DNA of 64,000 nucleotides, taken from assembly GCA_963789265.1 (NCBI GenBank), contig CAWBKB010000001.1:64001-128000 (forward strand), given 5' to 3'. Shown here one piece after another: positions 37,476 through 64,000 of the stretch. Numbering within the stretch: the first letter of the stretch is position 1; each line of letters begins with the position of its first letter. This DNA comes from an uncultured delta proteobacterium. GTDB taxonomy: Bacteria > Desulfobacterota > Desulfomonilia > Desulfomonilales > Desulfomonilaceae. The notes under the pieces are model-generated. The model saw only the letters and a list, made by a program, of their open reading frames with translations. It ran no database searches and was not told the DNA's origin. A program made the translations under genes and the position numbers.

Positions 37476-37584
37476 CGGTTCCGCTGTTGCCGAAGAAAAG
37501 GTTCCAGTTGCCGGCGAATGTCACCTGCATGAGGAAAACGGACGAACCGAAGTTCGGAAAGCATCTAAAACAGAGGAGGTTAAA

Positions 37585-38784: not shown

Positions 38785-38816
38785 GTAGGGTTCACCAAGA
38801 ACGGGAAGGGGCGACA

Positions 38817-39690
38817 ATGCTGTCCGACGTAATTCAGCTTTTGGTCGGGGGCCTGTTGCTGGGCGGCATCTACGGGCTTGCCGCCTTCGGACTGTCCATA
38901 AGCTTTGGGGTTTTGAATATCCTGAACCTGGCTCATGGAGAGTTTCTGATGCTCGGTTCTCTGGCTGGCTATTCAGCATTTGTGACCTTAGGCACAAACC
39001 CCTTCCTGGCGGCCGTGCTAATTATTCCTCTCTTTGTGCTGATCGGGGCGGGCTTTTACGTCCTTCTGTTGAGACCCATAAGTGACAAGCCCCCCCACCA
39101 ATTGCTGGTGTCTTCCATACTGGTTACTCTAGGGGCTTCTCTCGCCATCGAAGACTTGACGGCATTCTTCTGGCAACGACCAATCACGGGTATTGAATAC
39201 TCTTTGCCTCCTTTAGAGATGGGCGGGGTAGTCGTGTCTTCGCTCAGGCTTCTGATTCTGTTGTTCATTTGTGTTTTGGCTGTGGTCCTCCAGGTTTACC
39301 TGAGGCGAACCTTTATCGGTCGGGCCATCCAGGCCCTTACACAGTGTCGCGAGGGTGCCAAGGTTGTGGGTGTTCCCATCGCGCGGGTTTCAGCGGTCAC
39401 CTTTGGCCTCGGGGCAGCACTTGCAGCTTCTGCCGGCGTCTTCTATGCGACGCTGTTCACGGTCACTCCGGTGATCGGAATTCCTCTTACGGTCAAGTAT
39501 CTTTGCGTGGTGGTGCTGGGTGGCCTGGGAAGTCTGGTGGGATCGGTGGTCGGGGGTCTCATATTGGGCCTGGCTGAAGCGTTTACAGCCTACTACGTGG
39601 GATCCGAATGGTCGCCCTGTGTCCCGTTTGTCCTGTTGATATCAGTACCTGATTATCAGGCCTTCCGGGCTGTTCGGATCGAGTGTATGA
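38817..39690 (+). CDS. LivH-like permease (frameshift near 39645)
   Basis: ILNLAHGEF; true C-terminus IIRPSGLFGSSV* in the alternate frame, stop overlapping the next ATG. Confidence 0.85.
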
Positions 39691-40652: not shown

Positions 40653-40677
40653 ACCGGCAGAGAGTTGTGTAGCAACA

Positions 40678-41430
40678 ATGGCGACTGTCCTGGAATGTCA
40701 GAACGTATTTAAACTGTTCGGCGGGGTCGTAGCTCTGTCAGACATAAACCTCCGGGTAGAGGAGGGTCGGATACTCGGTATCATCGGTCCCAACGGTGCG
40801 GGCAAGACTACTCTCTTCAACATAATTTCCGGAGCGCTTACGCCCACCAAGGGCAGGGTTTTCTTTCATGGTCGAGACATCTCCGGGATCGGAGCGAATC
40901 GGATCTGCAGGCTGGGAATCGCTCGAACTTACCAACTCGTGAGACCTTTTGCTTCCCTGACGGCTTTGCAAAACGTTCTCATCGGCGTCAGCTTCGGCCG
41001 AGGTTCTAGAGCACGTCGCGGCCAGCGGGTGCCTTTGGCCATGACCGAGTTGGAGTTCGTAGGATTGGCGGCAAAAGCGAACCAACCAGCCGCAAACCTT
41101 ACGTTGGTCGAGAAGAAACACCTGGAAATTGCTCGAGCCCTCGGCACAGATCCCTCAGTAATTTTACTGGACGAAGTGGTCTCAGGCTTGTCCCCGGGTG
41201 AAGCGGCGCACGTCATTGACACGATTCGGGAGATTCAGCGGCGAGGGATCACCGTTGTCATGATAGAGCACGTCCTGAGAGTGGTGATGGAGCTGTGTCA
41301 TTCCGTATTGGTATTACATTTTGGTGTACAACTCGCCTATGATCGCCCGGAAGCCGTAGTCAAAGACAAACAGGTTATTGAGGCTTATCTTGGCCGTGAC
41401 GAACCCACATCCGGAGGACCGAGTGCTTGA
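40678..41430 (+). CDS. ABC ATPase (LivG-like)
   Basis: GPNGAGKTT, ARTYQ, LLDE, IEH, EAYLG. Confidence 0.9.
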   Translation: MATVLECQNVFKLFGGVVALSDINLRVEEGRILGIIGPNGAGKTTLFNIISGALTPTKGRVFFHGRDISGIGANRICRLGIARTYQLVRPFASLTALQNVLIGVSFGRGSRARRGQRVPLAMTELEFVGLAAKANQPAANLTLVEKKHLEIARALGTDPSVILLDEVVSGLSPGEAAHVIDTIREIQRRGITVVMIEHVLRVVMELCHSVLVLHFGVQLAYDRPEAVVKDKQVIEAYLGRDEPTSGGPSA

Positions 41431-42127
41431 TGTCGTCAATCTGAACGTTAGCTATGGGCCGCTACACGTCTTGTGGGACGTGTCGTTGACGGTGAAGGAG
41501 CGGGAAATAGTTGCGCTCCTCGGCTCCAATGGCGCGGGTAAAACCACGACACTCAAGACGATTCAGGGACTTCTTCGCCCATCCTCCGGCCAGGTACACT
41601 TCATGGGTGAAAGCGTTCATCAATTGGCCTCACACCAGGTGGTAGCGCGCGGTTTGTCCCTTGTGCCTGAAGATCGGTTGCTATTCCCGGAAATGACCGT
41701 TCTCGATAATCTGGAACTCGGTGCCTTTCCCGCTGGAGCACGTCAGAAACGTCAAGATACGCTTGACTGGGTGTACCAATTGTTCCCGCCCGTTTTCCAT
41801 CGTGCGAAGCAGAAGGTTAAGACCCTCTCGGGTGGCGAGCAACAGATGGTGGCCATTGGACGGGCCCTCATGGCGAAACCTAAGTTGCTTTTGCTGGATG
41901 AGCCGTCGCTGGGCTTGGCTCCATTAGTGGTAGCCGAACTCTTCCGGACGGTGAAACAAATCAATCGCCAGGGCATCTCGGTCCTCCTCGTGGAACAGAA
42001 CGTGAAAAAGAGTCTCGAACTGGCGCACCGTGCATACGTGCTGGAAACGGGTAAAGTAATACAGGATGGTCCGGCAAGAGACCTCTTGAACGATCCCAGA
42101 GTCCGAGAAGCGTATCTAGGCGTGTGA
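41423..42127 (+). CDS. ABC ATPase (LivF-like)
   Basis: GSNGAGKTT, LSGGEQQM, DEPSLGLAP, VEQN. Confidence 0.9.
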   Translation: MLDVVNLNVSYGPLHVLWDVSLTVKEREIVALLGSNGAGKTTTLKTIQGLLRPSSGQVHFMGESVHQLASHQVVARGLSLVPEDRLLFPEMTVLDNLELGAFPAGARQKRQDTLDWVYQLFPPVFHRAKQKVKTLSGGEQQMVAIGRALMAKPKLLLLDEPSLGLAPLVVAELFRTVKQINRQGISVLLVEQNVKKSLELAHRAYVLETGKVIQDGPARDLLNDPRVREAYLGV

Positions 42128-49943: not shown

Positions 49944-51341
49944 TTGGTGGTCCAAGACCAATCCGTCAAATCGCTCTTTCTGTCTCCTCGGTCGGTAGTG
50001 TTTATCGGCGTTCCTCGTAAAAGTGGCCCGGGCACTTTAAATTCGATAGATAATCTCAGAAACTGGGGCTACGAGGGACGAGTCGCAATTGTCCATCCCC
50101 ACGTACGAGAAATAGCGGGAATTCCCGTATTGCCATCCGCCTCCGAATTAAATTCTAAGATTGATCTGGCCATCGTTTCGACTCCAAGAGAAACGGTTCC
50201 TGCGATTATAAGAGAATGCGGCCAAAAGGGCATCAAAGCTGTGATTGTTACCAATCAAGGTTTTGCCGAGTCAGATGGAAGGGGCCAGGAGTTGCAAAGA
50301 GAAATGCTCGCAGAGGCCGATGAGTTCGATATGCGCATTCTCGGGCCCAATACACTCGGCGTATCCAACGCATTCCACCGGTTCAATTCTTCGTTCATGC
50401 CGCTCCATCGGGAAGAGGCCCCCATCGGGCTTATTTGTCAATCCGGCGTCTTCTTTGTGGGCGTGAATCAGCTTCTAGGCGGCATGGGCCTCGCAATAGA
50501 CGTAGGGAACGCCTGCGACGTGACCGCGGTGGACGCTCTGGAATGGTTGGGTGAAGATGAAAGAATACGCGTGATTGCCCTTCATGCCGAGGAAATTCGA
50601 GACGGCAAACGTTTCCTTGAAGTTGCCGAAAGAGTTGGTCGCCGAATTCCCATAATCGCCCTGAAAACGGGGAGGTCTCAAGAAGGGGCTACCGCGGCGG
50701 CCTCGCACACTGGCTCCCTGTCAGTTGATGACAGAATGGTTGATGCTGCTTTTCAAAAGGCTGGGGTGCTTCGCGCTGACGAGACTCAAGACCAGGCGGA
50801 TTTGGTTCGAGGCTTCGTGCGGCTGCCGCCTATGAAAGGCCCCAGAGTAGCCGTGGTGACTCTTACCGGCGCTGGTGGAATTATCCTCCTCGATGCGATG
50901 GAAAGATACGGCCTGGAGTTATCAAGGTTTTCTCCAAAAACCATTAATGGCATTCAGAGATTGTCCCCCGACTGGATGTCGCTCACGAATCCAACGGACA
51001 TTTGGCCGGCCGTAATGAAAAACGGAATGCGCAAGGCCTATACCACCGCCTTGCGAGATGTTTTGTCCGACCCCAACGTGGACGGCGTCCTCTGCGTGGC
51101 TCTTGGCCTTGCAGATGCGGAACAGCAGCACCTGGGGGCCGAGGACGTGATTCAGCAATTATCGGAAAACTCGAGCAAACCAGTCGTGACCTGGGTTTAC
51201 GGACCGCAAGCTGAAGAAACTGCCAGGAGACTGGAGCGATACGGTCGAGTTCTGTCGGTGCGCAGTCTCGAAAGAGGCGTTCGGGTTTTGGCTTCTATGG
51301 CGCGCTATGAGAAATGGAAAGAATCGCAAGCCAGCGAATGA
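49944..51341 (+). CDS. Acyl-CoA synthetase (ADP-forming) alpha-type, CoA-binding protein
   Basis: SPRSVVFIG, GFAE, RILGPNTLG, QSG, GN..D, KTGRS, AASHTGSL, NPTD. Confidence 0.88.
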   Translation: MVVQDQSVKSLFLSPRSVVFIGVPRKSGPGTLNSIDNLRNWGYEGRVAIVHPHVREIAGIPVLPSASELNSKIDLAIVSTPRETVPAIIRECGQKGIKAVIVTNQGFAESDGRGQELQREMLAEADEFDMRILGPNTLGVSNAFHRFNSSFMPLHREEAPIGLICQSGVFFVGVNQLLGGMGLAIDVGNACDVTAVDALEWLGEDERIRVIALHAEEIRDGKRFLEVAERVGRRIPIIALKTGRSQEGATAAASHTGSLSVDDRMVDAAFQKAGVLRADETQDQADLVRGFVRLPPMKGPRVAVVTLTGAGGIILLDAMERYGLELSRFSPKTINGIQRLSPDWMSLTNPTDIWPAVMKNGMRKAYTTALRDVLSDPNVDGVLCVALGLADAEQQHLGAEDVIQQLSENSSKPVVTWVYGPQAEETARRLERYGRVLSVRSLERGVRVLASMARYEKWKESQASE

Positions 51342-51749
51342 ACGATATATCATGAGGGGGCCTTTCTTCAGAGCAAAAAGACTTCTACAGCATCACTCTT
51401 GCTCGATTCCTCAGCCATCGTTAACGTTAAGAACGTAGCTGCCGGTCATTGTAACAGCAGTCCTGCCCGTGCAAGCATTCCTGCAAAGTTTAACGGACCC
51501 TGAGAGAAGGTAATCAACGGAGGTCCTGCACGGATCGTCCGCATTGCTGAGGTCGCGGCCGTCACCAATGGACAGTTTCAGAATCAGGATTCTATGAAAT
51601 TCGACGCGTCAGGAGCGCTAGGTTACTAAAATCGGAAAAAAGAGACAGCGATGTTGCGATTTTATCTTGACTTTGGTTCTGCTATCCCTTAGTCTACGAT
51701 TCACGTAGTCATGAGGTTGAAACGTTACGATTCCCGGAGGGTCGATGGG

Positions 51750-52235
51750 ATGAACGGTGAGGGTCCAATTGACAGCACCGACAGGGAGATCATGTCGATC
51801 CTGCAAAAGAATTCTCGGGTTACGAATACCGAAATCGCCAGGCGCCTGGACATCTCCGAAGGAACGGTACGCAACCGGATCAAAAGACTGGTGGACGAGC
51901 GCATCATTCGGAATATTACAGTGGTCAACCCTGAGACTCTTGGGTACCAGGTTCATGTAATTGTTGGCGTCCAAGTTGAGTACAAGAAACTGCCGGAAGT
52001 CACGAAACAGCTTAAGGAAAAGGAGGCGGTCCACTTCCTGGGAATTGCTGCGGGGAGGTATGACCTGATGGTGATAGCCTTTTTCCGTAATACCGAAGAG
52101 CAGCTTGCCTTTTTTACCAATGAGCTGGCTTCCATAGACGGCATAGTGCGATTGGAGACCTTCACAGTACTACAGATGCTCAAGACAAAGTATCTCTGGG
52201 GTGTTTCGGTGGCCGAGTCCAAAGCGGCCGACTAA
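51750..52235 (+). CDS. Lrp/AsnC family regulator
   Basis: D.TDREI...LQKNSR...EIARRL..SEGTVRNRI, GRYDL. Confidence 0.93.
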   Translation: MNGEGPIDSTDREIMSILQKNSRVTNTEIARRLDISEGTVRNRIKRLVDERIIRNITVVNPETLGYQVHVIVGVQVEYKKLPEVTKQLKEKEAVHFLGIAAGRYDLMVIAFFRNTEEQLAFFTNELASIDGIVRLETFTVLQMLKTKYLWGVSVAESKAAD

Positions 52236-52293
52236 ATTGGAACGGAGACTGCAAAGTTGACCGCGGTGGTAAAGCTGGAGTCGGAGAGGGTGC

Positions 52294-52698
52294 ATGATCA
52301 AGAAAATTAAACACATAGGTTTGGCGGTGGAGAACCTTGCCGAAGCCAGCGATTTTTTCCGGAAGCACTTCCAAGTCTCGGTTTCGGAACGTGAACATTT
52401 CGGAGAGCTGATTTTCTCTTTCATCCCTGTAGAAGGCGCCCACCTGGAGCTTCTCCAGTCCACTTCAGGCGACGGGCAAATCGCGAAGTTCATTCAGAAA
52501 AAGGGTCAAGGTGTTCACCACATTGCCTTTGAGGTAGACGATATTCAGGCCGAATTGGACCGTTTGAAGAGCGAAGGCCTAACCATGATAAATGAAAAGC
52601 CTTACCTGAACGCACACCAAGACTTGGTGGCCTTTCTTCACCCGAAGTGTACGTACGGTGTTCTTATAGAGCTTATACAGACCAAGAAAAACGCATGA
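52294..52698 (+). CDS. mce: Methylmalonyl-CoA epimerase family
   Basis: HIGLAV, LELL, KKGQGVHHIAFEVDDI, AFLHPK..GVLIEL. Confidence 0.88.
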   Translation: MIKKIKHIGLAVENLAEASDFFRKHFQVSVSEREHFGELIFSFIPVEGAHLELLQSTSGDGQIAKFIQKKGQGVHHIAFEVDDIQAELDRLKSEGLTMINEKPYLNAHQDLVAFLHPKCTYGVLIELIQTKKNA

Positions 52699-52761
52699 CG
52701 GAACAGCTCGGAAATCATCTGAATCCATCACTTGGCGCCGGCCAAACGGGATAGAGGTATC

Positions 52762-54327
52762 ATGGGAATCACCAAGACCTGGGATAGCGAACTGGCCAAA
52801 CTGCAATCCAAGGATTCTGAAGCTCGGCTGGGAGGAGGAGAAGACCGGCTTCAGAAACAGCGGGACATGGGAAAAATGACGGCCAGGGAACGCATTGACC
52901 ACATTTTGGATCCGGATAGCTTCGTCGAACTCAATATGTTGGCCGAACATCAGTGCCGCGATTTTGGCATGGACAGAAAGAAATTTGTCGGTGACGGCGT
53001 GGTAACAGGCTATGGAACTATAGAAGGTCGCAAGATCTACATTTATTCCGAAGACGACACGGTCTTAGGCGGATCCACCGGTAAGGTCCATGGAGCCAAG
53101 ATCCATTACGTTCTGCGGTTGGCGCGCGAGCACATGGTGCCGGTGATCGGGTTAAACGATTCCGCTGGGGCACGCATCCAGGAAGGGATGGACAATGTGT
53201 ACGGTATCACTGGTATGTTTTACCAGAACACTCTCAATTCCGGCATTGTCCCCCAGATCGCTGCCATCATGGGAGCATGCACGGGCGGAGCGGCCTATTC
53301 AGCCGCTTTGTGCGACTTCATCGTTCAAGTAGAAAAAACTTCGCACATGTTCATCACCGGACCTGCTGTGGTCAAGGTGGTGACAGGCGAGAATGTGGCA
53401 TTTGAAGATTTGGGCGGAGCGAAAGTTCATGCCACGAAATCCGGAGTAACCCATCTGACAGCCAAGGACGACCAACAATGCCTCGACCTGATAAAGCGGC
53501 TGCTGTCCTATCTTCCCCAAAACAACCTCGAAAAACCTGAAAAGAAGCCAACGAACGATCCCGTGGATCGAAGCACCTCGGAATTGGTCGAGATCGTTCC
53601 GATCCAAATGTCTCAGACTTATGACATGAAGAAGGTCATTCTGACCATCGTGGACGACAAAGACTTCTTTGAAATTCAACCTGCTTTCGCCAAAAACATA
53701 GTGATCGGCTTTGCCCGCATGGGAGGGCGGACGATCGGCATCGTAGCCAACAACCCCAGGGTTCTAGGCGGTTGTTTGGACATAGATTCCTCTGACAAAG
53801 CATCGCGTTTCATACGGACGTGCGACGTCTTCAATATCCCTATGGTCACTCTCGTAGATGTGCCTGGATTTCTGCCGGGAGTCCACCAGGAGCACGGCGG
53901 CATCATACGCCACGGAGCGAAGCTGCTCCACGCTTGGACCGAGGCCACAGTGCCCAAGATTTCCTGCATCCTCCGAAAAATGTACGGCGGCGCAATCCCG
54001 GCCATGGGAGTACACCAAATCGGCTTCGATCAGGTATTTGCTTGGCCGTGCGCGGAGATGCAGATGCTTGGCGCCGAGCCGTCCGTCAAAATCCTGTACC
54101 GCCGCGAGCTCGGGGAGGCAGAAGATTCAGAGGCGTTTTTGCAGCAGAAGATCGAAGAATATCAAAACCTCTATTTAACGCCTTACCATGCCGCGTCACT
54201 TGCGGTCATCGACGCTGTTATTCATCCCGCGGACACCCGCAAGAGAATCATTTCCGCTTTGGAGATTCTGGAAGACAAGGTCGCCGAAAAAAGGCCGTTT
54301 CGGAAACACACAAATATTCCGCTGTGA
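52762..54327 (+). CDS. Acyl-CoA carboxyltransferase/decarboxylase beta subunit (PccB/MmdA family)
   Basis: GKMTARERI, GDGVVTG, SAGARIQEG, MFITGP, DVPGFLPG, IIRHGAK, KHTNIPL. Confidence 0.92.
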   Translation: MGITKTWDSELAKLQSKDSEARLGGGEDRLQKQRDMGKMTARERIDHILDPDSFVELNMLAEHQCRDFGMDRKKFVGDGVVTGYGTIEGRKIYIYSEDDTVLGGSTGKVHGAKIHYVLRLAREHMVPVIGLNDSAGARIQEGMDNVYGITGMFYQNTLNSGIVPQIAAIMGACTGGAAYSAALCDFIVQVEKTSHMFITGPAVVKVVTGENVAFEDLGGAKVHATKSGVTHLTAKDDQQCLDLIKRLLSYLPQNNLEKPEKKPTNDPVDRSTSELVEIVPIQMSQTYDMKKVILTIVDDKDFFEIQPAFAKNIVIGFARMGGRTIGIVANNPRVLGGCLDIDSSDKASRFIRTCDVFNIPMVTLVDVPGFLPGVHQEHGGIIRHGAKLLHAWTEATVPKISCILRKMYGGAIPAMGVHQIGFDQVFAWPCAEMQMLGAEPSVKILYRRELGEAEDSEAFLQQKIEEYQNLYLTPYHAASLAVIDAVIHPADTRKRIISALEILEDKVAEKRPFRKHTNIPL

Positions 54328-54363
54328 GCTCTGGAAAAGAAGTCACGGGCAAGGTGGAGACGT

Positions 54364-56031
54364 ATGGACAAGATTAGGGAAAAACTGGCGTTTTGGGAGG
54401 AGTCCACATTGAAAAAAGCTGTGGACGGCTCCGGTGAAAAGAAAGAGATCTTCACTACAGACAGCGGGATCCCGGTCAAGAATTTGTATACGCCCCTGGA
54501 CTTGGAAGGTATGGACTACAACCAAGACTTAAGTTTTCCCGGAGACTATCCCTACACTCGAGGGGTCTATCCTTCGATGTATAGGGGCCGCCTCTGGACC
54601 ATGAGGCAATACGCGGGCTTTGGAACAGCCGAAGAAACGAACAAAAGATTCCGTTATCTTCTGAACCAAGGGTCCACGGGCTTGTCCATGGCTTTCGATC
54701 TGCCCACTCAACTCGGATATGACTCGACCGACCCCTTGGCAGAAGGCTCTGTAGGCCGGGTAGGCGTTGCCGTAGACACTCTGGCGGATATGGAAACGAT
54801 ATTTCAAGGCATTCCTTTGGATAAGGTGTCTACGTCGATGACCATAAACGCCACTGCTCCGATTCTTTTGGCCATGTACATTGCAGTTGGGGAAAAACAG
54901 GGTGTGTCGCGGAATCAGTTGATGGGAACTACCCAAAACGACATTCTCAAGGAATTCATTGCACGAGGAGCATACATCTTTCCGCCCGAGCCAAGTCTCA
55001 GATTGACGCTGGATATCATCGAGTATTGTTTTCAGCACGTTCCAAGGTGGAACACGCTCAATATCGCCGGGTATCACATCCGAGAAGCGGGTGCTAGTGC
55101 AGTTCAGGAGCTAGCTTTCACACTGGCCGATGCCATCACGTATATCGAAAAAGCGCAGGAGAGAGGGCTGGAGGTTGACGATTTTGCCCCGAGGCTCTCG
55201 TATAGCCTGGGCTGTTATCGAGATTTGTTTGAAGAGGTAGCGAAATTTAGGGCTGCCAGACGTCTATTTGCCAAAATCATGAAAGACCGCTTTGGAGCCA
55301 AAGACCCGAGGAGCTGCCTCTTCCGGACGTTCAGTGGCTCCTGCGGCTCCACGCTTGTCTCCCAACAGCCAATAAATAACATTGTCAGGGTTACCATGCA
55401 CGCCCTCATGTCGATTCTCGGCGGACATCAGGCTATTCACACTGCCTGTTGGGATGAGGGTTACGCAATCCCCAGCCAGGATTCCGCAACGATTGCACTG
55501 AGGACACAGCAGATACTTGCCTACGAATCCGGCTTGACTAGCACAATCGACCCGTTAGGGGGCTCCTACTACGTGGAAGCGCTGACCAACGAAATCGAAG
55601 AGAAAAGCCAGGAGTATCTGGACAAAATCGACAATATGGGTGGAATGCTCTCGGCCATCGAGGACGGTTACATTCAACGGGAGATCCAGGAATCCAGCGT
55701 TCGGTCTCAACAAGAGATCTATAGCGGTGAGAAAGTCTTTGTAGGGGTGAACAAGTTTAGGGACTCCGAAGAAGCGACGGAAGACCATGATTTCTTTGAA
55801 CTGGATTCCGGTGTGGAGGATCGGCAGAAAGCCAAACTCGTCCAGCTCAGGGCCGAACGGAGCACTGCGAAAGTGGGGGCTGCGCTTACGGCCCTCAATG
55901 AAGCCGTCGACCGCAAAGAAAACCTCATGCCTTTCATACTGGAAGCGGTCAGGAGCTATGCCACGGTAGGAGAGATTTGCGGGCTCATGCGGGAAGCCTG
56001 GGGCGAGTTTAAGGCCCCGATTTACATCTAA
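54364..56031 (+). CDS. B12-dependent acyl-CoA mutase, large (substrate-binding) subunit
   Basis: PYTRG.YP.MY, WTMRQYAGFG, AFDLPTQ, QNDILKE, GYHIREAG, DPLGGSY. Confidence 0.93.
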   Translation: MDKIREKLAFWEESTLKKAVDGSGEKKEIFTTDSGIPVKNLYTPLDLEGMDYNQDLSFPGDYPYTRGVYPSMYRGRLWTMRQYAGFGTAEETNKRFRYLLNQGSTGLSMAFDLPTQLGYDSTDPLAEGSVGRVGVAVDTLADMETIFQGIPLDKVSTSMTINATAPILLAMYIAVGEKQGVSRNQLMGTTQNDILKEFIARGAYIFPPEPSLRLTLDIIEYCFQHVPRWNTLNIAGYHIREAGASAVQELAFTLADAITYIEKAQERGLEVDDFAPRLSYSLGCYRDLFEEVAKFRAARRLFAKIMKDRFGAKDPRSCLFRTFSGSCGSTLVSQQPINNIVRVTMHALMSILGGHQAIHTACWDEGYAIPSQDSATIALRTQQILAYESGLTSTIDPLGGSYYVEALTNEIEEKSQEYLDKIDNMGGMLSAIEDGYIQREIQESSVRSQQEIYSGEKVFVGVNKFRDSEEATEDHDFFELDSGVEDRQKAKLVQLRAERSTAKVGAALTALNEAVDRKENLMPFILEAVRSYATVGEICGLMREAWGEFKAPIYI

Positions 56032-56059
56032 AGATTTGAGACGTCGAAAGGTCGCTCCT

Positions 56060-56449
56060 GTGGAACGAAAGATTCGAGTGTTGCTCGGTAAGGTCGGACT
56101 GGATTCTCATGACCGCGGTATCAAGATTGTGGCCCGTTTCCTACGCGATGCCGGCATGGAAGTCATATATGTCGGGCTACGGACCAAGGTGGAGGAGCTG
56201 GTCAATGCAGCAGTTCAAGAGGATGTCGATGTGGTAGGCCTGAGTTTCTTAGCCGGTGACCACATGGTTCTGGTGCCCAAGGTGCTAACCGGTTTGAAAG
56301 ACAAAGGGAAAAACGATGCTCTGGTCCTTGTGGGCGGCATCATCCCGAAAAAGCACATACCGGACCTGTTGGCGTTAGGAGTGACAAAGGTCTTCTTGTC
56401 GGGAAGGCCCCCGACGGAGATCGTTGAGTGCATACAGGAGCATGTTTGA
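56060..56449 (+). CDS. Cobalamin-binding small subunit of the mutase
   Basis: GLDSHDRG (DxHxxG), GMEVIY.G, VGGII. Confidence 0.92.
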   Translation: MERKIRVLLGKVGLDSHDRGIKIVARFLRDAGMEVIYVGLRTKVEELVNAAVQEDVDVVGLSFLAGDHMVLVPKVLTGLKDKGKNDALVLVGGIIPKKHIPDLLALGVTKVFLSGRPPTEIVECIQEHV

Positions 56450-56564
56450 TGCCGTACGCCCAGTCGCGGGGGCATGACTTTGTGGCCTCGCAAACCATCA
56501 CTCAGTCTCTGACCATCACAGTACTTTTACACAGTCCAGAATTGGAAAGGGAGGAAAAACAAGG

Positions 56565-57494
56565 ATGATCATCGACGTTCACAGACACTTGGTGGCGAAA
56601 GACACCGTGCAAGGGGCTTACATAAAAGGGGCTTCCTTGAGCTTCAGCATGATGTATCGCAAAGCACACAATCTCGATATCAGCCCCCGAGACTTTGTGG
56701 AGAAGGTAGTCCGGCCACTTCTTGACCCTCAGGGTGACAAGGTCATCGAAGAGATGGACGCTGCCGGCGTGGACATGACCGTGATTTTTCCGGTGGATTA
56801 CGGATTGATCTTCGGCGAGGCGCCCATGCACATATTCGATCAGAACAAATTGTATGCCGAGACGGCTAAGAGGCACGAAGGTCGCCTGATGGCCTTCATG
56901 GCAATCGATCCTCGCCGCAAAGGGGCCCTGAAGCACTGCGAACAGGCTTACCATGAATGGGGAATGAAAGGCTTCAAGCTTCACGCCGGAGTCGGCTACA
57001 TGCCAGACGATCCCGTCTGTTACTGGGTTTACGAAAAAGCGGCGCAATGGAACATACCGGTCATGTGCCACACAGGAGGCGCACCTTCGGTGGGCCTTCA
57101 CTGGGAGAATTCACGGCCGTCCTTTTTCGCAACGGCCGCTTCACGATTTCCTGAAGTAGATTTCATTTTTGCGCATGCCGGCGACCTGGCTTGGTGGCAT
57201 GAGGCCATGCAAGCCGCGGTTTGGCTTCCGAACGTCTATCTGGATCTGTCGCTGTGGCAGAAACCATTTAAGAAAATGCCGCCCGAAAAGTTCTATCAAT
57301 GGCTGCGCCACATGGTCGACATGACCGGGCCTGAGAAGCTTCTGTTTGCGACCGATGCACCTTATCCAAACCTTTTCTATCCTCTGAAGGACTGGGTGAA
57401 AGTCTTCAGCAGCCCCAACGGGGACGTCAAGTTTTCTGGAGAGGAAATGAAGCTGATCCTCGGTGAGGCGGCCCGCAAGGTCCTCAGGCTGTAG
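56565..57494 (+). CDS. Amidohydrolase_2 family protein
   Basis: IIDVHRH, EMDAAGVD, GFKLH, CHTG, AHAG, LFATDAP. Confidence 0.88.
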   Translation: MIIDVHRHLVAKDTVQGAYIKGASLSFSMMYRKAHNLDISPRDFVEKVVRPLLDPQGDKVIEEMDAAGVDMTVIFPVDYGLIFGEAPMHIFDQNKLYAETAKRHEGRLMAFMAIDPRRKGALKHCEQAYHEWGMKGFKLHAGVGYMPDDPVCYWVYEKAAQWNIPVMCHTGGAPSVGLHWENSRPSFFATAASRFPEVDFIFAHAGDLAWWHEAMQAAVWLPNVYLDLSLWQKPFKKMPPEKFYQWLRHMVDMTGPEKLLFATDAPYPNLFYPLKDWVKVFSSPNGDVKFSGEEMKLILGEAARKVLRL

Positions 57495-57506
57495 AGAGGG
57501 ATTTTC

Positions 57507-58178
57507 ATGCCCGACATCATAGACGTCATCACGAGCAGAAAGAGTATTCGCCGGTACAAAGCCGACGCTGTGCCGGACGATATGATCGACAGGATCCTCG
57601 AGGCGGCCAGATGGGCACCGACAGGAGAGAACTATCAACCTTGGCGATTCATCGTGGTCCGGGACCCGGAGACGAAGAACAAAATAGGCGATTTGGCGAA
57701 GATTGGGAGCGGCTCCCGGATGACCGCTTGGTATTGTCAAGGCCACATGCAAAAGAGGTTCGAAAAGATTCAGGATCCTCAAAAAAGAGCCGAAGTCCTG
57801 CGGCTCATGTATTCGGGACAAGTCTCGGAGTTTGCCAAGCAGGCGCCCGTGGTGATCGCAGTGATCGGCAGCCTGATGGAAGGCTCGGTCGATGTGCCCT
57901 ACGACCTTTCGGCCGCCATTGAAAACATGCTTTTGGAGGCACACTCTTTAGGCTTGGGCGCCTGCTGGGTGCACGGCCCTGTGGCCACCACAAGAGACGC
58001 TAAGAAATTTAAAGAGATACTTGGGATTCCCACGGGAATGGGAGAATACAAGGTCATTGCCTACGTAGCGTTTGGCTGGCCGGCTGAACAGCGAAGACAT
58101 CCAAGGCCGAAAAAGGAACTACAGGATATCGTTTATTGGGAGAAGTTCGGCCGGAGAGAGAGGCCGCAGTATGGATAA
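57507..58178 (+). CDS. Nitroreductase family protein
   Basis: RKSIRRY, AARWAPTGENYQPWRF, ENMLLEAHSLGLGACW, GWP. Confidence 0.92.
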   Translation: MPDIIDVITSRKSIRRYKADAVPDDMIDRILEAARWAPTGENYQPWRFIVVRDPETKNKIGDLAKIGSGSRMTAWYCQGHMQKRFEKIQDPQKRAEVLRLMYSGQVSEFAKQAPVVIAVIGSLMEGSVDVPYDLSAAIENMLLEAHSLGLGACWVHGPVATTRDAKKFKEILGIPTGMGEYKVIAYVAFGWPAEQRRHPRPKKELQDIVYWEKFGRRERPQYG

Positions 58179-58652
58179 TACACAATACTATAATGAACTC
58201 CTTTACCGGCTGGAAAACTCTTCTACCACGAACTGTCGGATTGTGCCCCGTGGAAAACCGAATACATAGGCATTGACTTCATTCAGGCCAAGAATGTCAG
58301 CGGAACCACTGAGGATGACATCATCTCAGCTTGCATCACGGAAATCGTCGGTGCTGACCTGGTCAAAGTCATGTCCTACTCCATCGAGGGGCGCGGCATT
58401 CTCCTTAAACTGAAGATCCAAGGGTGCAGGCACCTGCCAAAAGAAACTATGCTGCGGAGAAGCGGCATCAAACCTTACAATTGTCCGATCACCAACATGA
58501 TTTTGGATCAACTCATAGAGAAGTTAAGTTACACCACCACGTATTTGGCTGACCTGAGCGTTGATGAGGAAAGCGGGGAATGCAGCATCAGGGCCGCAAT
58601 TTATGCAACTCCGGACCAAATAGGAGTAGTGTCTGACTGGTCGAAAGTATAA
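58171..58652 (+). CDS. Hypothetical protein, possibly V4R-like metal/ligand-binding fold (frameshift near 58215)
   Basis: ATG overlaps the nitroreductase stop; open frame 58217-58652 with GCRH, NCP and a distal C. Confidence 0.55.
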
Positions 58653-58849
58653 CTCCTCTTAGCTGGGTCCATCTTCACCAAAGTATGTGCTGGACTTCGG
58701 CCTCTATCACCAACAATCAGGCGAGTGGAGCACAAATGGCAACACCACTCTGCCCGCCGACAGGGATGGACCGCGTGCCGCATGGCTGGGTAGGCTTTTT
58801 GAAGTGAACTAAATCCTGATCCCAAGAATCACAGAGAGGAGGATACAAC

Positions 58850-60517
58850 ATGGCCCTATTGGCGGGATGTCGGCCCTATGAAAAAGAAGATGCCGAGTTA
58901 TATGTTCGCCGTCGGTGGTGGCCGGGACTGACGTTCGGCGATCTCCTGGATAGAGCCGCGGACATATATCCGGAAAGATTGGCGGTGGTGGATGGTCAAA
59001 GGCGCCTCACCTACAGTGAATTGAGAGACACCGCCGATAGGCTGGCCATCGCGTTGCTGAACTTAGGGATAGAGCCTCTGGACCGGGTCCTGGTGCAACT
59101 GCCCAACTGGCATGAATTTGCCTTCATCTATTTCGCTCTGCAAAAGATCGGTGCGATTCCTGTCATATTGATAGATCGATATCGGCAATACGAAGCAAAC
59201 CATCTCTGTAAGGTCGTGCAGGCATCCGCATGGATAGCTCCCGAAGCTGTAGGCAAGGTCGATTATCGCTCCGTCATACATGATGTGTTGAAGAATAATC
59301 CGCAAACCAGGCACGTCATTATGGTTCGGGCCAGTGAGACCTGCTCTTATCACAGGCTGGAGGACTTAATAGCTCCGGTGGTCCGAACCAAGGAGAGCAT
59401 TCGGAGGTTGGACGCTCTCCGGCCGGATCCCGCCCAGGTAGCACACATGGGCCCCACCGGAGGCAGCACCGGCATCCCCAAGGTCGCTCCTCGCACGCAC
59501 AATGATCTCATCTGCAACACTAAGTACTGCGCCGCAGCGTGGGAACTGACTGTTCACGACCGAACCCTGCTGGCAAGCCCCATAGGGCACGACCTGACGT
59601 TTACAAAAGGCTTCTTGGGTGCCATGACTACGTACGGGCAAGCAGTCATGCTCGACTCAACGGACCCCGAGCGCATCTGTGCTACCATTGAGAATGAAAA
59701 AGTGACGGCGGTTGTCTGGGTGCCAACGCTGGCAGCACGGCTTCTCGATTATGACCGGTTGAAAGAGTATGACCTCAGTTCCTTGAAAAAGATGCACTGC
59801 GGCGGGGGAAAAAGCCAGCCCGAACTTATCAGAGGGGTGTGGGAGACATTGAACTGCATTTACTTTAATGCTTGCGGCTCCACTGAGGGACTGACTTGCA
59901 TTACTCGGCCCCATTACGATCTGGACCGAGTGTGCCGGACTGTGGGGCGACCGACCTGCCCGTATGATGTCTACAAAGTAGTCGATCTGGAGGGCAATGA
60001 AGTGGGGTCCAATGCCAAGGGCGAACTGCTCATCAAAGGCCCGGGGATTTTCACCGGTTACTACAACAATCCGGAAGAGAATGAGATCGCCTTCACGGCC
60101 GATGGTTTTTTCCGCACCGGTGATCGGGCCGTGATTGACGATAATGGAGACGTTACCCTCTCGGGCCGACTGAAGGATACTATCAAGAGAGGTGGGGAAA
60201 GCATTAGTGCGCCGGAGATAGAAACTTTGATCGGTGGGCACCCCGATGTAGTACTCGTAGCCGTTGTAGCAATGCCGGATACACAGATGGGCGAACGGGT
60301 GTGCGCTTATATTCAGCCTCGGACCGGAGCGAAACTGGATTTCACAACGGTCATCTCATACCTGCGGAGCTTGGGAGCCTCAGTCCTGCAGCTTCCCGAG
60401 AGAATCGAATTCGTCGACAAAATGCCTCTGACCCAGTCGGAAAAAGTGGATAAGCGTAGCTTGCGGGAGGATATCGAGAGGAAACTTTCCACGAACATAC
60501 CGCAAGGCGGCCGGTAA
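58850..60517 (+). CDS. Aryl-acid adenylating enzyme (DhbE/EntE-like AMP ligase)
   Basis: QLPN, TGGSTGIPK..PRTHND, P.GHD, STEG, GFFRTGD, RGGE.I, LPERI. Confidence 0.85.
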   Translation: MALLAGCRPYEKEDAELYVRRRWWPGLTFGDLLDRAADIYPERLAVVDGQRRLTYSELRDTADRLAIALLNLGIEPLDRVLVQLPNWHEFAFIYFALQKIGAIPVILIDRYRQYEANHLCKVVQASAWIAPEAVGKVDYRSVIHDVLKNNPQTRHVIMVRASETCSYHRLEDLIAPVVRTKESIRRLDALRPDPAQVAHMGPTGGSTGIPKVAPRTHNDLICNTKYCAAAWELTVHDRTLLASPIGHDLTFTKGFLGAMTTYGQAVMLDSTDPERICATIENEKVTAVVWVPTLAARLLDYDRLKEYDLSSLKKMHCGGGKSQPELIRGVWETLNCIYFNACGSTEGLTCITRPHYDLDRVCRTVGRPTCPYDVYKVVDLEGNEVGSNAKGELLIKGPGIFTGYYNNPEENEIAFTADGFFRTGDRAVIDDNGDVTLSGRLKDTIKRGGESISAPEIETLIGGHPDVVLVAVVAMPDTQMGERVCAYIQPRTGAKLDFTTVISYLRSLGASVLQLPERIEFVDKMPLTQSEKVDKRSLREDIERKLSTNIPQGGR

Positions 60518-60580
60518 GTGTGGCCAGGTGACCTCCAACATTGATCTCCGTTTTGCCGTTTAGAGGAGTATAGAACGACC

Positions 60581-60716
60581 ATGTTCTTGCAGTAACTGAT
60601 CAACGGCATCATGCTTGGAAGCACCTATTCAGTAGTGGCTATCGGCTACGCTCTTATCTTCCGGGCGCTCAGCGTCCTCCATTTTGCTCATGGTGAAGTC
60701 TTCATGCTCGGCGCCA
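60581..60716 (+). pseudogene. LivH-like permease 5' fragment
   Basis: MFLQ*LINGIMLGSTYSVVAIGYALIF...LHFAHGEVFMLGA, then homology ends. Confidence 0.7.
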
Positions 60717-60941
60717 TCAACAAGTGGAGAGCGAAAGCGACCTGTTTGCAACGCGCGCCAAGTCCTTTGTGTTGCACAGTGTTGCCACCGACTGTGACGA
60801 ACCGTGGGAGCATGAAGACCGGAATGATATGCCCTGGAACGTTCCACGGGCAGGTGCGTGGGTTGTCCTTGTTTGGGCAGCCGCAGGCATCGAGCGACCC
60901 CGGCCTGGATCATTGGCCGTTACAAGGGAGAGCCAACCGTT

Positions 60942-62747
60942 ATGGCAGATAAGTTCGTCAGTCAGCGAAACATGGAGTTTATGGTTCATGAGGTTCTGAA
61001 TACCGAGGGCCTGACCCAATATTCGTACTTCGAGGACCACGGTCGCGAAGCCTTCGATCTGGTTTTGGACACTGCCGTGAAGATCGCCCAGGGGCTGCTC
61101 AGGCCGAGCCTTAAGATAATGGACCAGGATCCGCCGAAACTGGTTAACGGTCGAGTGAGAGTGCAGGCTATCGTGAGAGACTTCATGAAAGAATTCGGCG
61201 AAGGGGGATGGATATCCGCCACGGCGCCGTACGAGCTTGAAGGACAACAACTGCCCCAGGTCATGAAGGCTTCTTCTTCGTTTATCTTCGCCGCGGCCAA
61301 TTATTCAGCCAGCGTTTACCCGATGCTGACCACAGGCGCGGCCCATCTAATCGAATCCTTTGGCTCTGAAGAGTTGAAACGGACATATATTCCCAAAATG
61401 TTCTCAGGCGAGTGGCAGGGAACAATGGCCATGACGGAGCCCCAAGCAGGTAGTTCCCTTTCAGATATCATTACCCAGGCCGAACCCACCCCTGATGGCT
61501 ATTACAAAATTTGGGGTCAGAAGATATTCATTTCGGCTGGTGACCACGACGGTGTGGACAATGTTGTCAATCTTATGCTTGCCAAAATTAAAGGAGCTCC
61601 GCCAGGAGTCAAAGGTATCTCGTTGTTCGTAGTCCCCAGGCTGCGTCCCGACAAGAACGGCGGTTTGGAACCCAATGACGTTAACATAGCCGGGATTTTC
61701 CACAAATTGGGCTATCGCGGCTGTCCTATTACTCAGCTCAGTCTGGGCGAGAGCGGCGACTGTCGCGGTTGGTTGGTCGGAGTACCTCACCAGGGCCTGG
61801 CCTATATGTTTCAAATGATGAATGAAGCCCGCATAGAAGTAGGAATCGGCGCGGCGGGCATCGCTTCAGCCGCTTACTATGCTGCTCTTGAGTATGCCAA
61901 AGCAAGGCCTCAAGGCCGTAAGCCTGGGACCAAAAACCCGTCGTTGCCTCCCGTTCCCATCATTCAACATGCCGACGTCAAACGCATGCTGCTTTTTCAA
62001 AGGGCCGTAGTCGAGGGCTCTCTTGCCCTTCTCCTCCAATGTGCATTGTATTCCGATTACACAAAGGTCACTGAGGGGCAAGAGCGGGAGAAGTACGGTC
62101 AACTCTTGGATCTATTGACACCAATAGCCAAGACCTATCCGTCGGAAATGGGCATTCTCTCCTGTAGCCAGGGCCTCCAGGTCCTGGGGGGATACGGATA
62201 TTGCGATGAATTTCCCTTGGAACAATTCTATCGCGATTGCCGGATTCATCCTATTCACGAAGGGACCACGGGCATCCACGGTCTGGATCTTCTGGGTCGA
62301 AAAATAGTGATGAAGAACGGGCAGGCCTATCAGAGCTATTTAAGAGAAGTCCAGCAGACAATCCAATTGAGCAGGAGCAACCCGCTGATCGAGCCCTACG
62401 CCATCCGGCTTGACCAAACCATACTTAGACTCGAAGACGTCACACACCATCTCCTTGAAATCTCTAGAAACCATGGACCAGAACTCTTTTTAGCGGATTC
62501 GACTCTTTATCTGGAAGTTTTTGGGATCATTGCCGTCGCTTGGCAGTGGCTTGTCATGGGACTGGCAGCGTCCAAGGCATTAGATCAGGCGCCGTCCGAA
62601 GTGGAAGCCTCCTTCTATGAGGGAAAGCTTCAGACGATGAAATACTTTTTTCATTACGAACTTGTGAAATCACACGGGCTTTTTGAGCGGCTTTTGAATG
62701 GGGATGGCCTGACCGTAGAAACCAATGAAAACCATTTCATGGACTGA
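60942..62747 (+). CDS. Long-type acyl-CoA dehydrogenase
   Basis: GTMAMTEPQAGS, GQKIFIS.GDHD, GISLF.VP, MFQMMNEAR, LGGYGY, IHEGTTGI. Confidence 0.92.
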   Translation: MADKFVSQRNMEFMVHEVLNTEGLTQYSYFEDHGREAFDLVLDTAVKIAQGLLRPSLKIMDQDPPKLVNGRVRVQAIVRDFMKEFGEGGWISATAPYELEGQQLPQVMKASSSFIFAAANYSASVYPMLTTGAAHLIESFGSEELKRTYIPKMFSGEWQGTMAMTEPQAGSSLSDIITQAEPTPDGYYKIWGQKIFISAGDHDGVDNVVNLMLAKIKGAPPGVKGISLFVVPRLRPDKNGGLEPNDVNIAGIFHKLGYRGCPITQLSLGESGDCRGWLVGVPHQGLAYMFQMMNEARIEVGIGAAGIASAAYYAALEYAKARPQGRKPGTKNPSLPPVPIIQHADVKRMLLFQRAVVEGSLALLLQCALYSDYTKVTEGQEREKYGQLLDLLTPIAKTYPSEMGILSCSQGLQVLGGYGYCDEFPLEQFYRDCRIHPIHEGTTGIHGLDLLGRKIVMKNGQAYQSYLREVQQTIQLSRSNPLIEPYAIRLDQTILRLEDVTHHLLEISRNHGPELFLADSTLYLEVFGIIAVAWQWLVMGLAASKALDQAPSEVEASFYEGKLQTMKYFFHYELVKSHGLFERLLNGDGLTVETNENHFMD

Positions 62748-62774
62748 GACTCACCTTCCTTTGACGGAGGCTTC

Positions 62775-63546
62775 ATGTTTACATCCAAATTCGATCTGAC
62801 TGGAAAAGTCGCCTTAGTCACTGGCGGAAACGGCGGCATCGGCCTGGGCATGGCTAGCGCTCTGGCCGAGTCGGGCGCGGACGTCTGCATCTGGGGTCGC
62901 AGCGAGACCAAGAATCACACGGCAGAAAACGTATTGAAAGCATATGGCCGACGAACACTTGCCTTGAAGTGCGACATCACCGACGAATGCCAGGTTAAAG
63001 AGTGCTTCGCCAGGACGACGGATGTCTTGGGAGGAGTCGACGCGTGTTTCGCCAATGCAGGCTTGCATAGAATGTCCACGCCTTTCCATGAGATGGATGC
63101 TGAGGAATGGAGACTCATATTTCGGACCAATATGGACGGCACATTCTTTACTCTTCGGGCCGCGGTACGACACATGTTGGAACGAGGGAAGGGCGGCTCG
63201 CTTGTGGCAACCAGCAGCCTCTCGGGGATTTCCGCTATGCCTAGAGGTGAACATTACGCAGCAACCAAGGCCGGCGTAATTGCCATGATACGTTCCGTGG
63301 CAGTGGAGTATGCCCGATACGGGATACGAGCGAACGCCATCTTACCCGGATGGGTCGAATCGGAGATGACCGGAGATTTGCTGGCCTGGGACAAGTTTCA
63401 GGCCGCGGGTACTTCCTAGGGTGCCCATGCGCCGTTGGGGAACACCGGAAGATTACGGGGCGATAGCCGTGTACTTCGCCAGCGATGCGAGCACGTACCA
63501 CACTGGCGACATCGTGGTCATCGACGGGGGGTACCACTGCTTTTGA
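62775..63546 (+). CDS. Short-chain dehydrogenase/reductase (frameshift near 63410)
   Basis: TGGNGGIG, ANAG, YAATK, PGW; C-terminus PMRRWGTPED...IDGGY in the alternate frame. Confidence 0.88.
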
Positions 63547-63722
63547 CATTCCTCAGGCGGTCATTTGAGAGAAGAGGGCTGCCTTGTGAGCTCCGTATTG
63601 GGCGTATCCAGGTTCTTTCTGTGCTTGGGTGACATCTATGTGATCCGAAGCGCAACGCACTTTCCGGGTTGCCAACCTTGGTTCGATCAACTTTTCTTTC
63701 AGGTTCACAGGAGGAAAGGGAT

Positions 63723-63845
63723 ATGCTCCTGCCAAAATTTGACTATCACGAACCCTCGACTCTTGAGGAAGCCTTGCACCTTCTCTCGGAGTTCGGAGGC
63801 AATGCCAAGGTACTGGCGGGCGGGACTGACCTTCTCGTCAAGCTC
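63723..63845 (+). pseudogene. 5' fragment of a xanthine-oxidase-family FAD subunit (CoxM-like)
   Basis: MLLPKFDYHEPSTLEEALHLL.......VLAGGTDLLVKL, then broken at a hairpin. Confidence 0.7.
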
Positions 63846-63887
63846 ATCTTCGACAGTGCCCCAAAATGGAGCACTGTCGAAGATGAG
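63843..63887. repeat. 17-bp perfect inverted repeat
   Basis: ctcatcttcgacagtgc-N11-gcactgtcgaagatgag. Confidence 0.8.
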
Positions 63888-64000
63888 TGTGACGAGAACG
63901 CCTGTCAATCGTTCAATGGTCCAAACGCAATTTTTCATTTTCTCTGTGTAACAAGACTGCAGGGAGGACACCGTGCAAAAGGTATCTACCGCAACCGTCG

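Follow-up and report, generated by a model that had tools for sequence, protein, structure and literature searches.

A second B12-dependent mutase that probably rearranges a substituted succinyl-CoA in anaerobic organic-acid breakdown

The window analysed here is a 64,000-nucleotide stretch of contig CAWBKB010000001.1 (assembly GCA_963789265.1, positions 64,001 to 128,000), from an uncultured soil relative of sulfate reducers in the Desulfomonilaceae. A run of plus-strand genes at about 51.7-63.4 kb (window coordinates, as throughout) has been read as a catabolic operon (Table 1). Behind an AsnC/Lrp-type regulator lie four genes, separated by spacers of 33, 36 and 4 bases, for an epimerase, a carboxyltransferase (CT) and the large (mutL) and small (mutS) subunits of an acyl-CoA mutase. 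The interval 52294-56449 spans just these four leading enzyme genes, the conserved unit extending further downstream. It is probable that this core sits in a larger operon and that the mutase acts between a 2-substituted succinyl-CoA and the malonyl-CoA with the same substituent, rather than between succinyl- and methylmalonyl-CoA; the enzyme, encoded in addition to a canonical methylmalonyl-CoA mutase (MCM), would be a second B12-dependent mutase, probably rearranging a substituted succinyl-CoA in anaerobic organic-acid breakdown. To our knowledge, only a handful of acyl-CoA mutase specificities have been described, namely for methylmalonyl-, ethylmalonyl-, isobutyryl-, hydroxyisobutyryl-, pivalyl- and phenylsuccinyl-CoA. 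Two DNA sequencing runs, both from a single soil-metagenome study, contain the DNA (shares 0.48 and 0.28); no RNA run is listed. Scans of 51300-64000 were uninformative on the operon limits: two promoter-like sites, both on the minus strand, were found against 8.5 expected, and 15 terminator-like sites against 12 expected.

Table 1. Genes of the putative operon and its upstream neighbour, by window position
Feature	Position	Strand	Evidence
ADP-forming acyl-CoA synthetase, alpha-type part only; possible cluster member	49944..51341	+	Pfam CoA_binding and Succ_CoA_lig; TIGR02717 (NCBIfam) 344.8 bits, under cut-off
AsnC/Lrp-type transcription regulator, operon head	51711..52235	+	Pfam HTH_24, HTH_AsnC-type, AsnC_trans_reg
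Methylmalonyl-CoA-type epimerase, glyoxalase fold	52294..52698	+	TIGR03081 122.6 bits (cut-off 114.95)
Carboxyltransferase (CT), PccB / MmdA / 12S type	52732..54327	+	PF01039 598.6 bits
Acyl-CoA mutase large subunit mutL, substrate-binding TIM-barrel	54364..56031	+	PF01642 707.8 bits (profile positions 1-512 of 512); TIGR00641 744.8 bits (cut-off 303.8)
Mutase small subunit mutS, B12-binding, DxHxxG (GLDSHDRG)	56036..56449	+	PF02310 88.3 bits; TIGR00640 136.5 bits
Amidohydro_2-family metal hydrolase / decarboxylase / hydratase-like enzyme	56565..57494	+	PF04909 118.1 bits
Nitroreductase-family flavoprotein	57507..58178	+	PF00881 113.4 bits
93-residue protein without recognised family, three invariant Cys	58371..58652	+	Open reading frame; relatives in clade loci
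AMP-forming (ANL) acyl-CoA ligase, kin to aryl-acid adenylating enzymes	58850..60517	+	PF00501 and PF13193
Long acyl-CoA dehydrogenase (ACAD), DmdC / FadE5-like	60858..62747	+	Pfam Acyl-CoA_dh_N/M/1 and Acyl-CoA_dh_C
Short-chain dehydrogenase (SDR), frame broken near 3' end	62775..63419	+	PF00106 171.5 bits, 214 residues only

Positions 54364-56449 encode a split (two-subunit) acyl-CoA mutase, assigned from sequence to the coenzyme B12-dependent superfamily. In end-to-end HMMER alignments, mutL scores best with the 2-hydroxyisobutyryl-CoA mutase HcmA (4R3U, 558 bits), then with human MMUT (2XIJ, 471 bits) and P. shermanii MCM (MutB, 1REQ, 454 bits). Residues are numbered here as the 1REQ_A chain index plus 1 in the HMMER alignment, which gives Tyr89, Arg207 and His244, the numbers used in the literature. 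The motif strings that a first-pass annotation had quoted for the mutase and the CT are all found in the translations (in mutL, RQYAG at residues 81-85, KEFIARG at 196-202, NIAGYH at 233-238, RLSYS at 277-281, RTFSGS at 321-326 and QAIHTA at 356-361), and its numbering of four substitutions, F287S, H328F, Q330G and N366A, agrees with a count along 1REQ_A. Aligned with 1REQ_A and 2XIJ_A, mutL retains the equivalents of Tyr89, Gln197, Arg207, Tyr243, His244 and Glu370. The annotation had set the enzyme apart from isobutyryl-, hydroxyisobutyryl- and pivalyl-CoA mutases on the carboxylate-binding Tyr and Arg, and the alignments bear this out: in place of the Phe or Ile for Tyr89 and the Gln for Arg207 of those types, mutL has Tyr and Arg, which are invariant in its clade. 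HcmA and the window mutase are both split and both have Asn at the S239 site (NISGYH in HcmA), but HcmA has Ile and Gln (RQIAG, KEYMAQK) at the carboxylate-binding sites and canonical FF, H-Q and HTN at the pocket sites that are changed in mutL.

The changes in mutL, in P. shermanii numbering, are S239N, S241A, F286Y, F287S, W288L, H328F, Q330G, T331S, S332C, S362A, L363I, N366A, S367C, L368W and A371G, human MMUT and P. shermanii MCM having the canonical residues at these sites. The wall formed in MCM by F287, H328, Q330 and N366 thus reads S, F, G and A. The MCMs of P. shermanii and human and the split archaeal and bacterial forms have the same fold, cofactor domain and carboxylate-binding set, and an epimerase and a PccB/MmdA-type CT are likewise linked to the window mutase; the difference lies at F286, F287, W288, H328, Q330, T331, S332, S362, N366, S367 and L368. 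With the MCM equivalog model NF006944 (NCBIfam), mutL scores 611.1 bits against a cut-off of 876, a weak test because the model is built on the fused form and mutL is split; the IcmF model NF045497 gives 304.7 bits against 1500. Most likely, the wall of the substrate/adenosyl cavity has been rebuilt and the free carboxylate is bound as in MCM. The new wall residues are mainly small and polar (Ser, Cys, Thr, Tyr and Gly, plus one Trp), and the pocket looks enlarged but polar. From such a wall, a side chain of moderate size that accepts hydrogen bonds would be expected, rather than a large hydrophobic one. The bulky substrate suggested in the first pass is thus not borne out, a moderate and possibly polar side chain being indicated instead.

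These changes are fixed in a whole clade. A similarity search gave 119 proteins of 72-90% identity, mostly from metagenome-assembled genomes labelled Deltaproteobacteria or Desulfobacteraceae, the closest being labelled Desulfomonile tiedjei. Among these and the query, APRLSYSLGC is found in 118 of 120, the other two being one residue off, while G-S-C-G-S-T-L after FR[TI][FY][STA] and Q[AS]IHT[AS][CS]WDEG are each present in all 120. At positions 287, 328, 330 and 366, S-F/Y-G-A/S is read in 119/119 homologues and in 52/52 clade loci described below, 171/171 altogether. The equivalents of Tyr89, Gln197, Arg207, Tyr243, His244 and Glu370 are invariant in the same 171 sequences, as are F286Y, F287S, W288L, Q330G, T331S, S332C and L368W; H328 is replaced by F or Y and N366 by A or S. 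The comparison set comprised 77 mutases from the 79 ordinary split mutases of a scan of genome contigs, a scan which gave one clade member (locus L008). These reference-genome proteins, 49-61% identical, have F-H-Q-N at the four sites in 74 cases, and differ in acyl type, with Tyr (60) or Phe (15) at the Tyr89 site and Arg (60) or Gln (17) at the Arg207 site. A wall that is normally constant across acyl types is therefore constantly different in the clade. The pattern goes far beyond chance, and the MCMs aligned from the PDB have F-H-Q-N as well. Some caution comes from an exhaustive search of 50%-identity representatives, which found 24,247 relatives, the best just 53% identical to mutL. For the 150 nearest of these cluster representatives, the eight most frequent four-site combinations, as listed, do not include S-F/Y-G-A/S. 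The pocket motifs of the representatives are very varied, so that the clade is one of many unstudied pocket variants.

A FastTree phylogeny (LG+gamma) of 163 large subunits, with no named references among its rows, included the window protein with two paralogues from its own genome, 50 loci of the clade and three metagenome loci outside it, every third of the genome loci, and the representatives P0124-P0215 of 500-730 residues; representatives outside this size range or past P0215, the remaining two thirds of the genome loci and any locus below 500 residues were left out. The clade is monophyletic (51/51, support 1.0), on a stem of 0.35 substitutions per site. Two Tyr/Arg mutases form its sister group (support 0.894), and the next group out holds canonical split MCM and isobutyryl-CoA mutase types, including the genome's own canonical copy. 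The tree and alignments support the mutase as a member of a distinct conserved clade, and not as an ordinary MCM paralogue. A further mutase type was met in three metagenome loci (L091, L094 and L150): at 42-43% identity, it has HTACWDEG but also MNVCGAH and VRLFAFIIAGA, and represents another putative specificity class, likewise unstudied.

In the 6.06-Mb assembly, PF01642 matches occur at seven places in five loci. One of them (par1, C1:332297-333961) is a canonical MCM, with SISGYH, RLSFFF, RFHTQT and QSLHTN, and adjoins an epimerase gene and that of an 87-residue biotin carrier. Two others, an IcmF-like gene and a further divergent mutase, have broken frames. The remaining paralogue (par3, G000:C1:2147770-2149533, minus strand, locus L208) keeps the Tyr/Arg equivalents in a Gly-rich pocket (RGLFGGGGFGL, AQTTALCSFDEA). 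It adjoins a family III CoA-transferase, an XDH-type Mo hydroxylase and an AMP ligase, a layout like that of the iaa operons discussed below, and is conserved at 82-95% in metagenome-assembled genomes of Desulfomonilaceae; a similarity search with it gave only proteins from Desulfomonilaceae-type assemblies, with no Aromatoleum protein among the matches listed. As noticed in the first pass, the operon lacks a biotin carrier and meaB: Pfam detects neither in 49944-63419. MeaB matches above cut-off are found at C3:453088, inside the IcmF-like gene (C1:2505774) and as a short 24-bit stretch at C4:83430; the genome has one stand-alone MeaB, on another contig. All eight biotinyl-domain matches of the genome are outside the window; two other CTs have a biotin carrier within 2-3 kb, whereas the CT at 52732-54327 has none near.

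The neighbourhood of the mutase is also conserved. Loci were gathered by a pattern search at the DNA level for HTACWDEG, a peptide of the clade; the exact pattern misses Ser variants. It was found in 3 of 401 genomes sampled from the phylum, own genome included, in none of 7 from the same family, and in 117 metagenome stretches. The 83 loci examined, with genes taken from our own open reading frame calls, were 80 of these 117 stretches together with L008, L088 and L090; a clade mutase (at least 65% identity) is present in 66 of them. Each neighbour was counted only in those clade loci whose DNA extends far enough on the side concerned. Downstream of the large subunit, relatives were found of the small subunit (52/56), the Amidohydro_2 protein (at least 60% identity, 18/35), the nitroreductase-family protein (at least 70%, 20/34) and the 93-residue protein (16/30); upstream, relatives of the epimerase (at least 55%, 13/29) and of the CT (at least 60%, 9/17). 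Pfam and NCBIfam matches further link a thiolase, an SDR, a MaoC-type hydratase and a long ACAD to clade mutases in other loci.

Two layouts can be distinguished. In type A, a group of SDR, thiolase, CT and epimerase genes diverges from a GntR/FCD regulator, which is followed by mutL, mutS, the Amidohydro_2, nitroreductase and 93-residue protein genes and one or two ligases, with a long ACAD and a MaoC-type hydratase close by. The window and L121 share a variant of it, in which every gene has the same direction and the regulator is of the AsnC type; this regulator is kept at 82% in L121, and a GntR/FCD regulator takes its place in most other clade loci (26). Full-length relatives of the ADP-forming synthetase recur next to clade mutases in L162, L168, L134 and L124. 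In type B, GntR, mutL and mutS precede an XDH-family Mo hydroxylase with CoxG, FAD and 2Fe-2S subunits, closest to the alpha subunit of 4-hydroxybenzoyl-CoA reductase (689 bits, under cut-off). The set also includes a family III CoA-transferase, an epimerase, a RutB/biuret-hydrolase-like isochorismatase, a DoeA-like M24 hydrolase, a NIPSNAP protein, a ligase and an ADP-forming acyl-CoA synthetase. The mutases of this layout group in a single subclade (support 0.999), whose signature is LSITGYH plus FRTYSGS. By analogy, type B would follow the same logic as type A: modify a ring, open it, and rearrange the product. In one type-B mutase cluster (L141:296-2767, metagenome), genes for the alpha and beta subunits of indolepyruvate:ferredoxin oxidoreductase lie alongside.

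The epimerase identity proposed in the first pass holds, the protein exceeding the equivalog cut-off of TIGR03081. The CT passes the Carboxyl_trans domain test and stays below the curated mmdA cut-off (TIGR01117, 713.4 bits against 998.8); its best PDB match is the Thermotoga PCC beta subunit 1VRG (586 bits). Its acyl-pocket motif is RKMYGGAIPAMG, where 1VRG reads RKAYGGAYIAMG and where the canonical form is RKAYGGAY. The motif contains the string KMYGGAIPAM, which had already been singled out as deviant, and the deviation is real: all 15 type-A-linked CTs that cover the region have RKMYGG[AS]IPAMG and both type-B-linked ones RKAYGGGW[AS]AMG, whereas two other CTs of the genome keep the canonical RKAYGGAY[IV]VM. 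The residue after GGAY is one that we take to be a specificity determinant in Streptomyces PccB. Since the motifs of the mutase and of the CT change together, a shared non-standard acyl group is argued for.

The proteins encoded downstream are less easily placed. For the Amidohydro_2 protein, no PDB sequence matches at E<=0.001 and the ESM Atlas gives only clusters named 'amidohydrolase family protein'. Its AF2 model (pLDDT 81.4) comes nearest to LigW, LigY, LigJ, dihydroxybenzoate decarboxylases, ACMSD and IDCase, with a fold likeness at the family level only (TM 0.6-0.69, 14-20% identity). The nitroreductase-family protein scores under the BluB cut-off (TIGR02476, 73.5 bits against 150); in the PDB it comes closest to NADH oxidase and nitroreductase structures that are uncharacterised, and it matches BluB-like proteins, iodotyrosine deiodinase and albonoursin synthase more weakly. 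It is more conserved than the mutase, with 88% mean column identity over 24 sequences. The 93-residue protein has 13 relatives, in which C19, C38 and C71 are invariant; it has no Pfam match and no PDB sequence match, and its weak AF2 model (pLDDT 66.8) gives no fold match at E<=0.001. A complex prediction for the nitroreductase-family and 93-residue proteins scored 0.00 in a run without controls, and speaks neither for nor against their pairing. The ligase finds its best PDB match in DhbE (1MD9, 339 bits), and L121, L169, L158, L119 and L123 have downstream relatives of it at 59-82% identity. The idea of an ortho-hydroxy-aryl acid ligase was dropped, the HNYPLSSPG binding stretch of DhbE reading HDLTFTKG there. 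The long ACAD matches 8PNG (353.8 bits) and 6IJC (344.4 bits) and has relatives of 45-64% identity in L158, L100, L145 and L133.

A route can be proposed from these elements. The ANL ligase would activate an organic acid, which the nitroreductase-family flavoprotein, perhaps with the 93-residue protein, and the Amidohydro_2 enzyme might reduce and then open or trim; reduced or hydroxylated and opened, the acid would become a 2-substituted succinyl-CoA. The mutase would then move the thioester group, converting the substituted succinyl-CoA into the substituted malonyl-CoA, whose C2 the epimerase would invert. The dedicated CT could remove the carboxyl group or hand it on through a biotin carrier encoded elsewhere, and the long ACAD, the SDR and, in other loci, the MaoC-type hydratase and the thiolase would complete beta-oxidation. 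Given the distinct clade, the separate MCM, the CT motif and the linked beta-oxidation genes, this substituted succinyl-to-malonyl scheme is the most economical. The first pass had already proposed rearrangement to a malonyl-CoA followed by epimerisation and decarboxylation; the conversion stands as the best reading, in a presumed direction. The gene identities, the clade with its fixed pocket changes, the co-varying CT, the conserved order of the genes, the separate canonical MCM and two alternative enzyme sets, of kinds that modify and open rings or amides, are observed; the substrate class, the pathway direction and the roles of the accessory enzymes are what we infer. A comparable logic has been proposed for indoleacetate degradation (PMC8360864) and for alkylsuccinates (PMC6776118).

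A narrower version of this scheme can be put forward tentatively, and is itself rather unlikely: the clade would catalyse a so far undescribed rearrangement of a succinyl-CoA with a polar side chain, as the hub of a new route by which hydroxylated (hetero)cyclic acids are broken down anaerobically. Preparing the ring would fall to a new two-part flavoenzyme (the nitroreductase-family protein with the Cys-containing 93-residue protein) and a ring-opening Amidohydro_2 enzyme; in the sister subclade, a Mo hydroxylase and amidases would take their place. As an example, held with equal reserve, a centrally activated tricarballylate CoA ester, or an amide or amino analogue, might be converted into (2-carboxyethyl)malonyl-CoA and, by decarboxylation, on to glutaryl-CoA.

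Several points weigh against the proposed scheme. The activity and the substrate of the clade enzymes are predictions. No biotin carrier lies beside the CT, either in the window or among the 30 commonest neighbour families, and with none linked the pathway could run in the carboxylating direction. Because the loci were picked by HTACWDEG, the constancy of that motif among them is circular, a bias that does not touch the 119 homologues. Amidohydro_2 and nitroreductase genes are present in only about half of the clade loci, and so look like alternative front ends, of at least two kinds, rather than obligatory partners. With the DhbE stretch lost in the ligase and only a generic fold match for the Amidohydro_2 protein, a ring-shaped substrate is a guess. 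Finally, the cluster shows damage at its 3' edge, where the SDR has a broken frame, its absent C-terminus being picked up in another reading frame, and what follows is a mere fragment of an XDH FAD subunit, so that the window copy of the cluster may not be fully functional.

The fragment in question (63669-63998) has some 40 initial residues recognisable as an XDH-family FAD-binding subunit, the remaining open reading frame showing no likeness, and is possibly a remnant of a type-B-like Mo hydroxylase set; an MFS transporter gene begins after it, just beyond the end of the window. Genes split into overlapping frames are also seen at 22260-23734, 23572-26602, 33379-36070 and 62775-63419 (a periplasmic binding protein, a molybdopterin oxidoreductase, an XDH-family large subunit and the SDR), and the same holds for one CT and two mutase paralogues outside the window. 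These many broken frames reflect either assembly indel errors or widespread gene decay.

The substituted succinyl-CoA scheme has to be compared with known systems. A split analogue of ethylmalonyl-CoA mutase (Ecm/MeaA) would act between methylsuccinyl-CoA and ethylmalonyl-CoA, or on a small alkyl homologue, with butyryl-CoA and beta-oxidation to follow. Ecm takes a substituted dicarboxylyl-CoA, works with an epimerase, keeps the Tyr/Arg pair and differs in the pocket; the carboxylate-binding residues kept in mutL, its moderately enlarged cavity and the linked epimerase, ACAD, SDR and thiolase would all suit such a role. However, Ecm is a single fused polypeptide and the window mutase is split, in a catabolic context with hydrolases. 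The Amidohydro_2, nitroreductase, Mo hydroxylase and amidase neighbours would be without a role in that route, and the new wall appears polar (Ser, Cys, Thr, Tyr) and not hydrophobic. On these traits of context, architecture and pocket, an Ecm analogue is improbable.

About as doubtful is orthology or close analogy to IaaGH, the mutase which in anaerobic indoleacetate degradation acts on phenylsuccinyl-/benzylmalonyl-CoA or (2-aminophenyl)succinyl-CoA. In PMC8360864, IaaGH of Aromatoleum aromaticum is described together with a CoA ligase and a CoA-transferase, iaa operons are reported from sulfate reducers, and decarboxylation is assigned to an acyl-CoA dehydrogenase, IaaF. The window shares with that system a B12 mutase, here only predicted to act on a substituted succinyl-CoA, and CoA ligase and beta-oxidation genes in an anaerobic operon, and the type-B relatives adjoin an XDH-type Mo hydroxylase, a family III CoA-transferase and an epimerase, with indolepyruvate:ferredoxin oxidoreductase as well in L141. 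What separates the two is again gene context. A family III CoA-transferase (IaaL) and IaaF would mark an iaa operon, but no CoA_transf_3 match lies in 49944-63419 and the ACAD is DmdC/FadE5-like. A dedicated CT is linked in the window, against decarboxylation by IaaF in the iaa route. Only a fragment of an XDH subunit is present in the operon, and par3 is the better iaa-like candidate of the same genome.

An ordinary MCM, kept as a second copy for propionate or succinate and with a pocket that has drifted without a change of substrate, is highly unlikely. The retained Tyr89, Arg207, Gln197, Tyr243 and His244 equivalents would fit it, as would an epimerase that passes the methylmalonyl-CoA epimerase model, a CT closest to PCC beta and MmdA-type proteins, and relatives named 'methylmalonyl-CoA mutase' in public records. 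But changes fixed in 171 of 171 sequences, at sites that read F-H-Q-N in 74 of 77 others, are the reverse of drift; a canonical MCM with its epimerase and biotin carrier is already encoded in the genome; the CT pocket motif is altered in step with the mutase; and the catabolic enzymes encoded alongside have no relation to propionate. A role as the (1-methylalkyl)succinyl-CoA mutase with which alkanes are degraded anaerobically after fumarate addition is very remote: the window does hold the same trio of CoA ligase, mutase and carboxyl transferase as the proposed route, in which the mcmLS mutase is itself only putative (PMC6776118), but the 30 neighbour families seen most often across the 83 loci include no glycyl-radical enzyme, the genome's single Gly_radical match (C1:1125443) lies about 1 Mb away, and the neighbours are hydrolases and flavoproteins rather than ass/mas genes. 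A link to indoleacetate or alkane degradation, which the first pass had named as settings of such mutases, is not supported, with no CoA-transferase in the operon and no glycyl-radical enzyme near. The likeliest reading, held as probable, is a new specificity class of dicarboxylyl-CoA mutase, with Ecm, IaaGH and the alkane mcmL weighed by gene context and known traits.

Further catabolic blocks are found in the window. At 10294-18146, the block comprises an AMP ligase, an OYE-type flavoprotein, a second Amidohydro_2 protein, a ChsH2-like OB-fold/zinc-ribbon protein, an enoyl-CoA hydratase and an ACAD, with a branched-chain-type ABC transporter after them. At 32072-42127, a PAS histidine kinase and a sigma-54 activator are followed by what looks like an aryl-acid CoA pathway: an XDH-family Mo enzyme with FAD, 2Fe-2S/hammerhead and MoCoBD parts, a PaaK-like ligase (AMP-binding_C_2) and an ABC transporter. 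One open reading frame on the minus strand (27569-28627) joins an IS200-like Y1 transposase domain to a DnaA C-terminal helix-turn-helix domain.

Literature searches on the gene combination and on the pocket positions returned no description of the module, and beyond these searches we know of none in print. Each newly found mutase specificity has so far meant a new pathway and a tool for rearranging carbon skeletons. The clade is common in anoxic sediment and soil metagenomes, with more than 119 clusters at 90% identity and 117 metagenome stretches recovered by the motif pattern, and it is annotated throughout as methylmalonyl-CoA mutase, the cluster names giving nothing else. A common clade with a co-evolved CT and two alternative sets of upstream enzymes would point to a widespread, unrecognised route of anaerobic carbon turnover, and metabolic reconstructions that assign the clade genes to the 'methylmalonyl-CoA pathway' may be wrong.

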